Shown: piece after piece, positions 33,672 through 42,805 of the stretch | Layout of the letters: every line of letters begins with the position of its first letter | Numbering within the stretch: position 1 is the stretch's first letter | Source of the DNA: an uncultured Acidobacteriota bacterium | GTDB lineage: Bacteria; Acidobacteriota; Vicinamibacteria; Vicinamibacterales; CAVVIG01 | Assembly: GCA_963814975.1 (NCBI GenBank) | Contig: CAWFFB010000021.1 | Coordinates: forward strand, 51,891 to 115,890 | DNA: 64,000 nt | Direction: 5' to 3' | Position numbers and translations under genes: made by a program | The notes under the pieces: model-generated | What the model was told of the DNA's origin: nothing | The model's database searches: none | Seen by the model: only the letters and a program-made list of their open reading frames with translations

Positions 33672-34663
33672 CCGCGAGTCTGGTGCGGGATCGGCGAAAC
33701 GGCCCGCCTGACCCCACGATACCATTCGATCGTCTTGCGAAGCCCCATCTCGAAATCTGTGCTGGCTTTGAAGCCAAAATACTGTGCTGCGCGAGAGGTG
33801 TCCAGGCAGCGTCTGGGCTGGCCGTCCGGCTTCGAGGCATCCCACTCGACAGTCCCGGAGAACCCCGTCAGCCGCACGATGAGCTGGGTCAGGTCCCGGA
33901 TGGAAATCTCGAATCCTGCTCCCAGATTGACCGGCTCCGCGCCGTCGTAGCGCTCGGCGGCCAGCAGAATGCCTTCGGCCGCATCGTCGGCGTAGAGGAA
34001 CTCTCTCGTCGCAGTGCCTGTTCCCCAGACCGTCACATGCTGGTCGCCCGCCTCCTGGGCATCGATACATTTCTTGATGAGCGCGGGGATGACATGCGAG
34101 GAGCCGGGATCGAAATTATCCCTTGGCCCGTACAAATTCACCGGCAGGAGATGCACGGCATTGAAGCCGTATTGCTGCCGATACGCCTGGCCCTGAACGA
34201 GCAGCATCTTCTTCGCGAGGCCGTACGGCGCATTGGTTTCCTCGGGATAGCCATCCCAGAGGTTGTCTTCGTGAAAGGGGACGGGGGTGAACTTGGGATA
34301 GGAGCAGATCGTGCCGATGCTGACGAACTTGGCCACTCCGGCGAGGCGTGCCTTTTCCATCAGGTGCACGCCCATTGCCAGGTTCTCATAGAAGAACAGC
34401 CCGGGGTTCTCGCGGTTCGCCCCGATACCGCCCACGACCGCAGCCAGATGGATGATGACATCGGGCCTGGACGTGTCGATCAGCCGCGCGATACCCGTCT
34501 CGTGACGCAAGTCGAACTCACGCTTGCGAGGAACCGCAACGTCGGCGCATCCCAGGGCCTTCAGTCGCGCGACGACGAAGGAGCCCAGGAAACCGGCCCC
34601 ACCCGTGACCACCACGCGCTTGCTATGCCAGTACTCGTTCGGTGCGGTCACCTCCTGACTCAC
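33668..34663 (-). CDS. fcl: GDP-L-fucose synthase-family epimerase/reductase
   Basis: [62 protein letters not shown]. Confidence 0.92.
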
Positions 34664-35515
34664 AGCGTGAACCCCGCTTTCACGGCGTCATCACGGAACA
34701 TCTTGACCGTGTCGAGCGAGAACTCATCGAGGTCCTTGCCGACCAGTTCGAGCTTCTTAAGCACGTCGTTGGTCGCCGTAATGATGTCGCAACCGATGTC
34801 GTCCGCCTGGAAAATGTTCAGGAGCTCGCGCGGGACTGGCCCAGAGCAGCTCCACGTTCGGCGCCATCCGGGTCAGTTCGCGCGCCGCAGCCATCACCGG
34901 CACAGGATCCCGCCCCGTGTCCGCGATGCGGCCTGCAAAGACCGAGATGACGGCCGGCGGTCCCCCCGCGAGCACGTGACACACGTCTCTAACCTGCGCC
35001 AGCGTCAGCACCGCGGTGACGTTGAGCTTGACGCCGGCTCTGGCCAGCCGTGTGATGAGCGGAATCGACGACTCCCGACGCGTGTTCGTGACGGGAATCT
35101 TGACGTAGATCTCGCCGCCCCAAGCGGCAATCATGGCCGCCTGGCGTTCCATTTCCTCGAACTCGTCCGAAAACACCTCGAACGAAACCGGGCGATCGGG
35201 AATCGCCGCGACGATCTCACGCGCAAAGGCCGGATAGTCGGTGACGCCCGCCTTACGCATCAGGGTTGGATTCGTCGTGAACCCCTTGATCAGCGGGTTG
35301 CGATACATCTCGAGCATCCCCGCCCGGTCCGCACCGTCGGCGAAGAGCTTGATCCGCAAGGCGGCCGGGCTTGGCTTCCACTCGAGTCGGGCTGATGCCT
35401 GGGACTGACCGGACACCCGGGCGCCCCCCGGGTTGAGCGAGCGAACGGTCGTATCTCGTGGTGGCATAAGTTTGTCCGCCAGGTAATCGTAATCGATGAA
35501 GACGGGCCGCTTCAT
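34660..35515 (-). CDS. Short-type transaldolase (LmbR-like), with an N-terminal extension that resembles a phosphatase relic; one frameshift near 34830
   Basis: [25 protein letters not shown] (Schiff-base Lys), [31 protein letters not shown]. Confidence 0.9.
35405..35515 (-). pseudogene. Internally deleted GmhB/LmbK-type HAD phosphatase
   Basis: [27 protein letters not shown] resembles a GmhB N-terminus (MKRAVFLDRDG) joined directly to a GmhB C-terminus (VFIDYxY...D..VxSL). It sits in the expected position with an ATGA overlap on the SIS gene. Confidence 0.55.
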
Positions 35516-36108
35516 CGCACCGATTCCCATTTCGTTTCGTGCGCCTTGAGTGCCGGGTGAGAGACGAGCAGATGCCACACGATGGCCTGGAAGGCCTCGG
35601 TGTGCGGGGTCGTGTGCTCGGGGTTGACGGTGGGCACGAGCACAAAGGCGTCAGCCACGCTCGCCGTGTATCCTCCGTCGCGACCGACGACGCCCAGAAT
35701 CCGGGCGCCAACCGCCTTGGCCACGTCGAGCGCGGCCACCAGATTCGGGCTCACGTTCTTCTCGAGGTTGCCTCCACCGACCGAAAGGACCAGCAAGGCA
35801 TCACGGCTCGTCAACCGGCTTGTCTGCAGCCATGCGGCGAACACCGTCGCCCAACCTTCGTCGTTCGTCCGCGCCGTCAGCTCCGACACGTTGTCTGTCG
35901 GCGCGTACGCCTCTATTCCGACAATCTTCCGAAAGTCATTAACGGCGTGCGACGCGTTACCCGCGCTGCCCCCCACGCCAAGAATGAACAACCGCCCTCC
36001 ACGGGATCGCACCTCTGCCAGGATCCCCGCCACCTTCTCGATCGCGTCGCGGTCGAGCCCGCGCGCGATATCCTCGACCTCGCGCAGGTACTGGTCTGCA
36101 AAGATCAT
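35512..36108 (-). CDS. SIS-domain phosphosugar isomerase (GmhA/LmbN-like)
   Basis: LFILGVGGSAGNASHAVNDFRK, ELTARTNDEG, LSVGGG, SPNLVAAL, TPHTEAFQ.IVWH. Confidence 0.9.
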   Translation of the reverse strand: MIFADQYLREVEDIARGLDRDAIEKVAGILAEVRSRGGRLFILGVGGSAGNASHAVNDFRKIVGIEAYAPTDNVSELTARTNDEGWATVFAAWLQTSRLTSRDALLVLSVGGGNLEKNVSPNLVAALDVAKAVGARILGVVGRDGGYTASVADAFVLVPTVNPEHTTPHTEAFQAIVWHLLVSHPALKAHETKWESVR

Positions 36109-41050: not shown

Positions 41051-42018
41051 CTATCTATTGGCGGCGGTCGAGCACCCAGGGATTCGCCTGAAGGTAGTCG
41101 AGCGTCTTCAGCACGCCCTCCCGGATCGTCAAACCTTAGGCGCCCACCCGAGGGATTTAACCTTCGTCGTGTCGAGGAGGATGAAGGGACTGTCGCCAAT
41201 CCAGCCCCGCTCGCCGCCCGTGTAGTGGCGTTCCGGGCTGACGCCAAGAGCCTCGACAGATGTAGCCGAGCGAGTCGTCCACAACCACGTACTCATCGGT
41301 GCCGAGGTTGAAGATGTTGACCGGCTCGTGTGCTTTGTCGATCACGGTCAGCATCGCGTCCACGCAGTCCTGGACGTACAGGTAGCTCTTGCGCTGCCGA
41401 CCGTTGCCGAGCACTTCAATGCGGCGCGGATCGGCCCGCAGCTTCTTGAAGAAGTCGAAGACGTGCCCGTGCGTGTAGCGTTCGCCGAGGATGGAGACGA
41501 ACCTGAAAATGTACGCCTCGAAGTCGAACCCGGAGGCGTAGGCGCTCAGCAACCCCTCGCCGGCGAGCTTGCTCGCGCCATAGAGCGACGTCTGGATGGG
41601 GAACGGGGCGACCTCAGGCGTGGGAAAGATCTCGGGCTCTCCGTAGATCGATCCCGTCGACGAAAACGCGATGCGTCGCACGCCGTTCGCCCGCATCGCC
41701 TCCAGCACGTTGAACGTGGCGATCGTGTTCTGTTCGAGGTCTTTGCGCGGATGGTTGGTGCCAAACCGCACGTCGGCGTTGGCGGCGAAGTGGAAGACGA
41801 AGTCGCAGCCTGCCATCGCGCGCGTCAGCGTCTCGGTGTCGAGCGTGTCGCCTTGCACGAAGCGGAATCGAGCGATGTGTTCGAGCCCGATCGAGGAACT
41901 CGGGCAGGCCGGTGGACAGATTGTCGAACCCGACGACATCGAGGCCCAGGTCGAGCAGTCGATCGACGACATTGCTGCCGATGAAGCCGGCGGCTCCCGT
42001 GACAAAGGCCGCGTTCAC
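41047..42018 (-). CDS. NAD-dependent epimerase (LmbM-like; frameshifts)
   Basis: VTGAAGFIGS, FHFAANADVR, FSSTGSIYG, SLYGASK, RFVSILGERYTHG, LGNGRQRKSYLYV. Confidence 0.9.
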
Positions 42019-42805
42019 TCGGGCACTTTAGCAGAAGTCCTCAGGAAGGACTGCTCTGGCGTGCAGCGGCTTCGGCGGGAGCGGCGGAGACGACGGTGCG
42101 ATGGCGCCATCGAATCGAGACGATGTCCCGGACATTGCGAATGTTGCCCGCCACCAGCTGCAGCCGGCTGTCGCCATCGTCGCGCCAGCGCACCGGCACC
42201 TGCTGCGATCCGGTATCCGAGCTGCCGTGCCAGATAGAGAATCTCGACGTCGAACATGTAGCCGTCGATCTGCTGCAACCGAAACAGGTCGCGCGCCACG
42301 TCGCCGCGGAAGAACTTGAACCCGCACTGCGTGTCGGGGATGTCGTTCAGGCCGACGCACGCGTGCATGAACAGGCCGAAGCCCCGCGAGCCCAACCGCC
42401 GATACAGCGGCTGCGCGCGCTCGATGCGCGAGGCACGCAGGCCGCGCGAGCCGATGACCACGTCGCATCCATCGCTCAAGAGCGGCTCGACCTTGTCGAA
42501 TTCGGCGATCGGCGTCTTGTTGTCCGCGTCGATAAAGCCGATGACGTCGCCCGTGCGCACAGCCGACGCCCTCGCGAATGCCGCGGCCCTTGCCGCGTCG
42601 CTCGGGCTGCCCGATCACGTTGATCTCAGGGCGCTGCGCCGGCGAGCGCGCCTGCCGCTTCGCGCGTGCCGTCGGTGCCGTCAGCCGAGACGATAATCTC
42701 GCACGGCAGGCCCTTGCCATCGAAATAGTCCAGCGCTTCGCCGATGGTCGTCCGGATGCGCGCGGCCTCGTTGTACGCCGGAATGATCAGGCTGACCAGC
42801 TTCAT
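42015..42805 (-). CDS. Polyprenyl-phosphate glycosyltransferase (DPG/DPM-synthase-like GT2; frameshifts)
   Basis: SLIIPAYNE, SADGTDGT, RGKGRGIR, FIDADNKTP, VIGSR, DTQCGFKFF, FDVEIL. Confidence 0.88.

Follow-up and report, generated by a model that had tools for sequence, protein, structure and literature searches.

A gene cassette related to lincosamide sugar genes in a surface-glycan locus of an uncultured Acidobacteriota bacterium

We analysed a 64,000-nucleotide stretch of DNA (the window; G000:C21:51891-115890) from the genome of an uncultured Acidobacteriota bacterium (G000, about 64% G+C), in which nine adjoining minus-strand genes form a predicted sugar-nucleotide cassette with nearest kin among the genes for the lincosamide octose. 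Gene families were called by Pfam on the pieces of open reading frame (ORF) in the window and by Pfam and NCBIfam on intact orthologues, and were followed with tblastn and frameshift-aware alignment. The intact orthologues came from L011, the cassette locus of the related genome G002, which was the reference for alignments and family scans. The nine genes are listed here in the direction of their strand.

41061..42018, minus strand: NAD-dependent epimerase, LmbM-type kin (Pfam Epimerase); 3 frameshifts
~39734..41050, minus strand: UDP-glucose-dehydrogenase-like (UGD-like) protein with the catalytic Cys missing, LmbL-type kin; ~8 frameshifts; the L011 orthologue has the N, central and C domains of Pfam UDPG_MGDP_dh
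38859..39733, minus strand: classical short-chain dehydrogenase/reductase (SDR), FabG/glucose-1-dehydrogenase-like (Pfam adh_short, NCBIfam); ~5 frameshifts
37884..38856, minus strand: Gfo/Idh/MocA oxidoreductase (Gfo), LmbZ-type kin (Pfam and alignment); 7 frameshifts
36878..37852, minus strand: GHMP sugar kinase, HddA/LmbP-like (Pfam and alignment); 3 frameshifts
36105..36857, minus strand: sugar-1-phosphate nucleotidyltransferase (Pfam and alignment); 3 frameshifts
35512..36108, minus strand: SIS-domain sugar-phosphate isomerase, LmbN/GmhA-like; intact, 0 frameshifts, 74% identity to L011
~35360..35511, minus strand: relic of a HAD gene, GmhB-like phosphatase; ~400-bp internal deletion compared with the intact 182-aa L011 gene
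34660..35359, minus strand: short dedicated transaldolase, TIGR02134 type; 1 frameshift near residue 191

The preliminary description of this DNA had placed these families on the minus strand in this order, from a glycosyltransferase of family GT2 down to the transaldolase and on into fcl and another GT2 gene, and all of them were found, the GT2-to-transaldolase run between 42943 and 34660. Its HAD relic was also recovered, as a single frame that fuses the HAD N-end (RPAVFLDRDG) to the C-end (LIDYGYEEP..VRVRSL, within roughly the last 30 residues) and continues in frame into the transaldolase. The cassette contains an SDR and lacks an aminotransferase, as had been stated, and no DegT-family gene lay between 34660 and 42943; the nearest was at 12562-13785. 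Named homologues closest to the window genes were from Acidobacteriota, including 'Acidobacteria bacterium' transaldolases and an epimerase of Luteitalea pratensis with 81% identity.

When species-representative genomes were scanned with the transaldolase, at least 599 stretches matched, of which 596 were confirmed, and the best 80 loci, all from other genomes, were fetched. Neighbour counts were made on the 51 loci that reached 15 kb or more (the long loci), and 88 loci were used for the GT2 and methyltransferase searches. The best 80 loci belonged to Acidobacteriota, Chloroflexota, Alpha- and Gammaproteobacteria, Myxococcota, Actinomycetota (Solirubrobacterales and Acidimicrobiia), Planctomycetota, Elusimicrobia, Legionellales/Coxiellaceae, Bacteroidota and others, and none of these 80 was from Streptomyces. 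The full set of nine genes in the order of the window, at 45% identity or more, was found in 8/80 loci (architecture A; one of the eight duplicates L011). These full-operon loci span Chloroflexia, Elusimicrobia, Methylococcales, Polyangiales and Acidobacteriota, and the nine-gene arrangement is far from chance.

In the long loci the transaldolase was accompanied by an SIS gene in 50 cases, a HAD gene in 43, a GHMP kinase in 33 and a nucleotidyltransferase in 28. A Gfo gene was present in 28 and a UGD-like gene in 21, with both together in 17. The repeated pairing of UGD-like and Gfo genes with the SIS-HAD-transaldolase set argues that the pair acts on a sugar derived from the transaldolase product. 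Two further architectures were seen. In 10/51 loci the GHMP kinase, nucleotidyltransferase, SIS, usually HAD, and transaldolase genes stood alone, with no match to Gfo or UGD-like proteins (architecture B). In 8/51 loci (architecture C, or type C) the SIS-HAD-transaldolase set was combined with two epimerases, an HldE-like protein with CTP_transf_like and PfkB domains, a Gfo and a Cys-less UGD-like gene. The type-C loci are L091:8843-16541 (Pfam-annotated, with a methyltransferase in addition), L028, L046, L048, L051, L053, L057 and L065, and their hosts are Proteobacteria, Coxiellaceae, Acidimicrobiia and others.

Within Acidobacteriota, a UGD-like gene with 54% identity or more occurred in only 3/301 genomes (G320, G093 and G311), each time 2.5-6 kb from a match to TIGR02134. 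The TIGR02134 cut-off was exceeded in 17/301 Acidobacteriota genomes and in 0/14 control genomes, and transaldolase copies with 52-69% identity were present in 11/41 related genomes, G000 counted. Among 1.84 billion representatives, HMMER found 4098 transaldolase matches, 700 of them below 1e-30. Judged from gene order and identity, the cassette is a member of a conserved, mobile family of sugar-nucleotide operons that crosses phyla.

The Lmb-type reference for the comparisons was a block of nine genes shared by two Streptomyces-like genomes, G854 and G785 (~70-71% G+C), and not the published Lmb proteins. The block was found in 2/201 genomes of a Streptomyces-like genus, which were reached through chaplin-positive genomes, and it was found via a weak transaldolase match of 66-69 bits; a TIGR02134-class enzyme was present in 0/201 of these genomes. 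The regions, covered by loci L101-L104, are G854:C6:166000-191999 and G785:C8:233000-257999. We take the published table of lmb genes to follow their physical order. The block reads transaldolase-DegT-nucleotidyltransferase-GHMP-Gfo-SIS-epimerase-UGD-like-HAD, equivalent to lmbR-S-O-P-Z-N-M-L-K, which runs opposite to the listing in Table 2 of PMC4351081 (lmbK,L,M,N,Z,P,O,S,R). Next to the block in G854 and G785 stood a resistance-type gene, APH- or ANT(2'')-like, and a GT1-like gene, and the flanks contained no nonribosomal peptide synthetase (NRPS)-like lincosamide genes. The block is a lincosamine-type sugar module rather than the lincomycin cluster itself, and it may represent an undescribed amino-octose glycoside cluster.

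The functions that the preliminary description had attributed to the Lmb proteins agree with Table 2 of PMC4351081 and with PMC12945683. In these sources the LmbR transaldolase, LmbN isomerase, LmbP kinase, LmbK phosphatase and LmbO guanylyltransferase lead to GDP-octose, which LmbM, LmbL, LmbZ/CcbZ and LmbS/CcbS convert to GDP-lincosamide. Reciprocal tests were run from the block to G000 and from L011 to the block genomes, each time against the next best paralogue, and trees were built with paralogues from three genomes as outgroups and with support from the Shimodaira-Hasegawa-like approximate likelihood ratio test (SH-aLRT). Overall, cassette-type and block proteins were 28-44% identical. 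Searches of the PDB with the transaldolase and the Gfo protein matched no Lmb or Ccb sugar enzyme, an Atlas search returned generic Gfo clusters only, and a homologue search with the L011 transaldolase returned only close metagenome relatives. An Ala-rich transaldolase representative, P0185, was tried as an LmbR candidate and dropped, as it was a singleton.

Of the tailoring enzymes, the cassette epimerase was the reciprocal best match of the block copy (238 vs 98 bits; reverse 210-212 vs 99; 40% identity), and in the epimerase tree the cassette and block copies formed one clade with an SH-aLRT of 99. The Gfo protein was likewise the reciprocal best match of its block counterpart (127 vs 71 bits; reverse 196-197 vs 89; 40-41% identity) and shared a clade with it at a moderate SH-aLRT of 84.

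The UGD-like protein of the window reads AYAGGTLARD, with GGTLARD in place of the canonical motif GGSCFPKD, so that the catalytic Cys has become Leu. The same Cys to Leu change was present in 10/10 cassette orthologues besides the window copy. More broadly, the form G[GA][TN]L.RD was found in 20/20 UGD-like sequences from cassettes, type-C loci and the block, and GG[GS]C[LF]PKD in 6/6 canonical paralogues; in the tree the 20 Cys-less sequences made up one side of a branch with an SH-aLRT of 99. In UDP-glucose 6-dehydrogenases the Cys of GGxCxxKD is the nucleophile for the second oxidation, and because this residue is lost, the cassette UGD-like proteins cannot be ordinary 6-dehydrogenases. The SDR is the sole cassette enzyme without a counterpart in the block, which has an aminotransferase in that pathway role. 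At L011:3817-6102 the UGD-like and SDR sequences form a single 761-aa ORF, either a true fusion or the result of a lost stop codon, and they are separate genes in L012 and the other cassette loci.

Among the front-half enzymes, which would build and activate the sugar, the SIS isomerase and the GHMP kinase were tied to the block by score. The SIS protein scored 80 vs 53 bits (reverse 60-70, with no rival above 24; 36% identity) and the kinase 66 vs 45 bits (reverse 112-123, as the sole matches in both Streptomyces-like genomes; 32-33% identity). Both were far from the heptose enzymes: the SIS protein reached 39-55 bits on GmhA models with cut-offs of 209-320, on which two other G000 genes scored 194-219, and the kinase reached 173 bits on the HddA model, cut-off 600. 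The HAD protein could be compared through relatives, since the LmbK-type HAD gene of the window cassette has been deleted to a relic. The block HAD was their best match (87-102 bits, 40-44% identity), the reverse search with it found C22:377088 as the best match in G000, and the L011 HAD scored 129 bits on the GmhB model, cut-off 178. The nucleotidyltransferase had MurU (105 bits), an Rv-type mannose-1-P guanylyltransferase (80) and HddC (65, cut-off 300) as its best NCBIfam models.

The L011 transaldolase scored 344 bits on TIGR02134 (transald_staph), above the cut-off of 282, and the window copy scored 249.7 bits because it is cut by a frameshift. A housekeeping fsa_talC transaldolase (307 bits) is encoded separately in G000, on contig C15. 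Twelve of 112 full-length transaldolase representatives exceeded 300 aa, and in eight of these, scattered over the tree, the transaldolase forms the C-end behind ~145-200 extra residues. Such long forms with a C-end transaldolase are P0121, P0124, P0125, P0130, P0142, P0147, P0167 and P0221, and also P0112 and P0318, for both of which HAD domains are recorded. In P0126 (449 aa) the transaldolase carries a C-terminal extension of ~210 aa of unknown kind.

The sequences show the gene content of the cassette, its conservation, its kinship to the lincosamine-type block, the lost catalytic Cys and the distance from the heptose equivalogs. In our opinion they are best read as an Lmb-like route to a nucleoside diphosphate (NDP)-octose that would end in a neutral 8-deoxy sugar, with a probability of roughly 0.55, because the tailoring enzymes, the SIS protein and the kinase are kin to the block, the lost Cys is shared with it and no aminotransferase is present. 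We infer the eight-carbon chain length from this gene set. The preliminary description had claimed the Lmb-type family set, with an SDR for the aminotransferase, and this held for the epimerase, Gfo and GHMP kinase as reciprocal best matches and for the UGD-like protein by its Cys loss and tree position, and failed for the transaldolase and the nucleotidyltransferase. For the isomerase, which it had proposed to compare with Lmb, heptose and housekeeping enzymes, the reciprocal scores point to the block copy, the GmhA models score far below their cut-offs, and the tree leaves the block copy outside. A GDP-linked product, which it had also proposed, is not implied, because the cassette nucleotidyltransferase and the LmbO-type gene of the block are not orthologous.

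From the gene families we infer the following sequence of reactions, including the acceptor. The dedicated short transaldolase would join a C3 donor to ribose-5-P to give octulose-8-P, the SIS protein would convert this ketose phosphate to the aldose phosphate, and the GHMP kinase would phosphorylate C1. A GmhB-like HAD would then remove the distal phosphate; as the copy in cis is deleted here, a GmhB-like gene elsewhere in the genome may serve. After the nucleotidyltransferase had formed an NDP-octose, the LmbM-type epimerase, the Cys-less LmbL-type UGD-like protein and the LmbZ-type Gfo would carry out epimerisation and a dehydration across C6/C8. For the lincosamides, a 2020 PNAS paper reportedly gives the steps as 6-epimerisation, 6,8-dehydration, 4-epimerisation and 6-transamination. 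The SDR would here reduce the keto intermediate to a neutral NDP-8-deoxy-octose, the neighbouring methyltransferases may O-methylate the sugar, and a short DPM1-like GT2 may pass it to polyprenyl phosphate.

Several observations weigh against this reading. The transaldolase is not the orthologue of the block enzyme (28-31% identity). The block enzyme is itself Fsa/TalC-like, with 84 bits on fsa_talC and 69 on TIGR02134, and it matches the cassette and housekeeping transaldolases of G000 equally, at 65 bits each. We take the NCBI description of TIGR02134 to refer to the transaldolase that serves the ordinary pentose-phosphate pathway in Staphylococcus and Coxiella, and therefore the cassette enzyme could simply supply sedoheptulose-7-P. 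The block nucleotidyltransferase ranked only 4th-5th (41-44 vs 84 bits), with a reverse best match outside the cassette. In the SIS tree the block copy fell outside the clade of cassette and type-C sequences. The UGD-like protein scored nearer the ordinary UGDs of the Streptomyces-like genomes (202-206 bits) than the block copy (153 bits), and it passed the NCBIfam nucleotide-sugar dehydrogenase subfamily TIGR03026 (311 bits, cut-off 190). The Gfo/UGD-like pair is not obligatory, because 11/28 Gfo-positive loci had no UGD-like match; conversely, 4/21 UGD-like-positive loci had no Gfo match. The HAD deletion is probably at least one real lesion in the cassette, and the reference itself is a syntenic block without NRPS-like lincosamide genes rather than a set of published Lmb proteins.

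Some of these points would suit an NDP-heptose. The transaldolase would then boost the supply of sedoheptulose-7-P, the SIS protein, kinase, HAD and nucleotidyltransferase would follow the glycero-manno-heptose logic, and the tailoring enzymes would modify a heptose. The front enzymes do share their Pfam families with GmhA, HddA, GmhB and HddC, the transaldolase sits in a family that NCBIfam names plain 'transaldolase' and is not orthologous to the block enzyme, architecture B consists of the front half only, and the type-C loci, like ADP-heptose loci, have an HldE-like enzyme together with two epimerases. However, sedoheptulose-7-P belongs to central metabolism, and a housekeeping transaldolase and two GmhA-like genes are already encoded in G000. 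The cassette SIS protein, kinase and nucleotidyltransferase score far below the heptose equivalog cut-offs, and the tailoring enzymes are nearest kin to genes of the LmbM/Z/L type, whose sole described substrate, according to PMC12945683, is GDP-octose. By our own chemical reasoning, a 6,8-elimination also requires a C8. We consider a heptose product less likely than an octose. A very different proposal is that the UGD-like and Gfo proteins form a WbpA/WbpB-style pair which turns UDP-hexose or UDP-HexNAc into a uronic or 3-keto sugar and has nothing to do with the transaldolase module. It could appeal to the TIGR03026 score and to a weak match of the Gfo protein to an archaeal UDP-GlcNAc 3-dehydrogenase (85 bits, cut-off 450). 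It conflicts with the Leu in place of the 6-dehydrogenase Cys in the window and all ten orthologues, with the finding that all 3 high-identity UGD-like genes in 301 genomes lie within 6 kb of the transaldolase, with a gene order that is fixed across phyla, and with a cassette that has no aminotransferase or acetyltransferase. With the Cys missing and the linkage this strict, the proposal is close to excluded.

A third alternative concerns the window copy and holds that the cassette is a dead remnant in this organism, its frameshifts and HAD deletion being real and the sugar no longer made. The preliminary description had hinted at frameshifts, and alignment to the L011 proteins put their number in the deposited sequence at 30 over eight genes (epimerase 3, UGD-like and SDR together 13, Gfo 7, GHMP kinase 3, nucleotidyltransferase 3, SIS 0 and transaldolase 1). 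Together with the ~400-bp HAD deletion and a long-ORF-poor stretch that runs on through ~40-60 kb of the window, this many lesions would suit a remnant. Their nature does not. The frame changes were 24 of +1, 2 of +2, 3 of -1 and 1 of -2, which makes 26 insertions and 4 deletions, and no in-frame stop was found across ~7.4 kb once the frames were corrected. Neutral decay with 30 indels is expected, by our rough estimate, to add several stop codons and to show a deletion bias. All 319 aa of the epimerase aligned to the intact protein P0392 (91% identical) with 3 insertions only, and the four segments between the shifts kept 83, 93, 90 and 76% identity to it. Identity to L011 was 74% for SIS, 71% for the epimerase, 69% for the transaldolase, 64% for the GHMP kinase and Gfo, 58% for UGD-like and SDR and 54% for the nucleotidyltransferase, a ranking of broken genes that mirrors pairs of intact orthologues such as L064 and L011, with SIS at the top and the nucleotidyltransferase at the bottom.

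Across the genome, long-ORF-poor stretches were patchy (78/1201 overlapping 10-kb bins below 0.3, by a measure that low-GC islands such as C15:255-292 kb distort), with 40-60 kb of the window among the worst, and poor bins were enriched near contig ends (17/39 bad vs 76/417 good bins). Poor polishing of high-GC DNA was rejected as an explanation, as the ORF-poor bins averaged a lower GC (0.622 vs 0.649). A search for public sequencing runs that cover 34600-43000 of the window returned none. Because the 26:4 insertion bias and the absence of nonsense codons are unlike neutral decay, we rate the 30 frameshifts with good confidence as most likely consensus errors, and therefore the organism probably has a working operon. 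The HAD deletion is a lesion of another kind and is probably real; a cis HAD match was also missing from 7/51 long loci of other genomes that had the SIS gene and were otherwise intact. G000 has a GmhB-like gene elsewhere, at G000:C22:377088-377681, which scored 118 bits on the GmhB model, where the L011 HAD scored 129. A dead remnant thus appears improbable to us.

Other parts of the assembly also looked irregular. The window from 43000 to 64000 was poor in long ORFs, with a coverage of 0.09-0.18; a 657-aa ORF at 47892-49865 fuses a GT4 fragment to a GT2 fragment, and at 45321-47376 two frames hold overlapping membrane-protein ORFs. These odd ORFs are probably further frameshift errors. The last ~40 kb of contig C15 (G000:C15:255000-292477) had 55-59% G+C, compared with ~64% for the genome, and lacked long ORFs rich in G+C at third codon positions; this DNA could be foreign, wrongly binned or poorly assembled.

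The genes around the cassette bear on the destination of its product. The preliminary description had placed the cassette in a surface-glycan locus, and the region from 12 to 50 kb of the window is one: it holds the DegT aminotransferase, four further GT2s, a PMT_2/GT-C-like protein, Gmd, Fcl, a Wzy_C protein and two methyltransferases. The genes that flank the cassette or are discussed with it are the following.

42802..43830, minus strand: class I S-adenosylmethionine (SAM) methyltransferase (Pfam), upstream of the next gene
42015..42943, minus strand: short GT2 of DPM1/AglJ-like build; frameshifted into the pieces 42626-42943 and 42015-42560
33668..34663, minus strand: Fcl-like protein, GDP-L-fucose synthase family; intact (Pfam; NCBIfam GDPFucSynFcl 287.5 bits, cut-off 500)
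32646..~33725, minus strand: GT2; intact, start uncertain (Pfam Glycos_transf_2, 92.6 bits)
43835..44701, plus strand: second class I SAM methyltransferase (Pfam), on the divergent strand

The Gmd gene at 25662-26651 (440 bits, cut-off 415) pairs with the Fcl-like gene, which gives a GDP-6-deoxyhexose route alongside the cassette. Orthologues of the 42015-42943 GT2, with 54-69% identity, adjoined the cassette in 7/88 loci from Chloroflexota and Acidobacteriota. An intact orthologue at L054:11441-12235 matched Pfam Glycos_transf_2 and gave weak full-length NCBIfam matches to dolichyl-phosphate hexose transferase (39 bits), AglJ (38) and PpgS (29), far under their cut-offs. A PMT_2 (GT-C) protein is encoded at 17811-19709 of the window. 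Polytopic membrane proteins adjoined the GT2 orthologue in L054 (903 aa) and L023 (845 aa), and no conserved GT-C partner emerged from these two, which have no Pfam family, are mutually non-homologous and are unrelated to the ORFs at 45-47 kb of the window. By tblastn, relatives of the 42802-43830 methyltransferase were present in 11/88 loci (for example L052, 49%, and L070, 44%), and relatives of the 43835-44701 methyltransferase, with 44-49% identity, in 4/88, in L021 between the transaldolase and the GT2. The presence of methyltransferases and a DPM1-like GT2 beside the cassette suggests methylation of the sugar and its transfer, perhaps to polyprenyl phosphate. With its lincosamide-type kinship and its place in a surface-glycan locus, the cassette probably puts a rare eight-carbon sugar on the cell surface.

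As a more tentative proposal, which we hold at somewhat below even odds, the operon family would send an NDP-8-deoxy-octose, possibly O-methylated, into envelope glycans via a polyprenyl-phosphate carrier in many phyla. On this proposal an ordinary envelope pathway would have the lincosamide octose pathway as its specialised sister or offshoot, and the Cys-less UGD-like/Gfo pair would be a general 'distal dehydratase' for higher-carbon sugars. To our knowledge, linear eight-carbon aldoses are hardly known outside antibiotics. If an NDP-octose is made, envelope sugars of a new class would be widespread among soil and water bacteria from many phyla, enzymologists would have a large natural family for LmbL/LmbZ-type chemistry, and the origin of the lincosamide sugar pathway would be open to direct study; the transaldolase type is present in more than 596 genomes. 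The value of the finding rests in the operon family and less in the window copy, which is error-laden in the assembly and has lost its HAD gene; the genes of the window are real, and intact orthologues are preferable for experiments.

The accessible literature on octoses and transaldolases, which included few subscription papers and no supplements, described no such cassette in a surface-glycan setting; it concerned lincosamides, apramycin (AprG), plant octulose and the Calvin cycle. What appears new here is lincosamide-type higher-sugar chemistry in an envelope-glycan operon, with another transaldolase subfamily, another nucleotidyltransferase and a ketoreductase that replaces the aminotransferase.

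Compared with known systems, the cassette differs from UDP-glucose and GDP-mannose 6-dehydrogenases in that its UGD-like protein lacks the GGxCxxKD Cys, although it passes TIGR03026. It resembles the systems of a polyprenyl-phosphate synthase with a GT-C enzyme (DPM1/PMT, ArnC/ArnT, GtrB/GtrC, AglJ) in having a short DPM1/AglJ-like GT2 and a PMT_2 protein in the window, but the GT2 matches are far below cut-offs and the link to the cassette sugar is putative. With apramycin it shares a transaldolase-family enzyme, AprG, that builds an eight-carbon sugar. According to PMC13707489, AprG extends a 6'-oxo pseudodisaccharide by two carbons in a [6+2] route. This is not a C3 + C5 condensation on sugar phosphates, and the AprG route has no module of SIS, kinase, HAD and nucleotidyltransferase.

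The GDP-D-glycero-alpha-D-manno-heptose pathway uses isomerase, anomeric kinase, phosphatase and nucleotidyltransferase families in the same logical order. In contrast to that pathway, the L011 proteins score 55, 173, 129 and 65 bits against GmhA, HddA, GmhB and HddC cut-offs of 209-320, 600, 178 and 300, the cassette adds a dedicated transaldolase, and G000 keeps separate GmhA-like genes. The lincomycin and celesticetin genes lie in antibiotic clusters, whereas the cassette lies in a surface-glycan locus. The cassette has an SDR in place of the aminotransferase, a TIGR02134 transaldolase instead of an Fsa/TalC-like one and a non-orthologous nucleotidyltransferase, and it is without carrier-protein domain, NRPS-like or mycothiol genes, at identities of 28-44%. 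What it shares with these antibiotic pathways is all but one of the nine protein families, a dedicated short transaldolase in both, a UGD-like protein that has lost the catalytic Cys and groups with the block copy, and an epimerase, Gfo, GHMP kinase and, by score, SIS protein that are the reciprocal best matches of the block, whose genes run in the lmb order.

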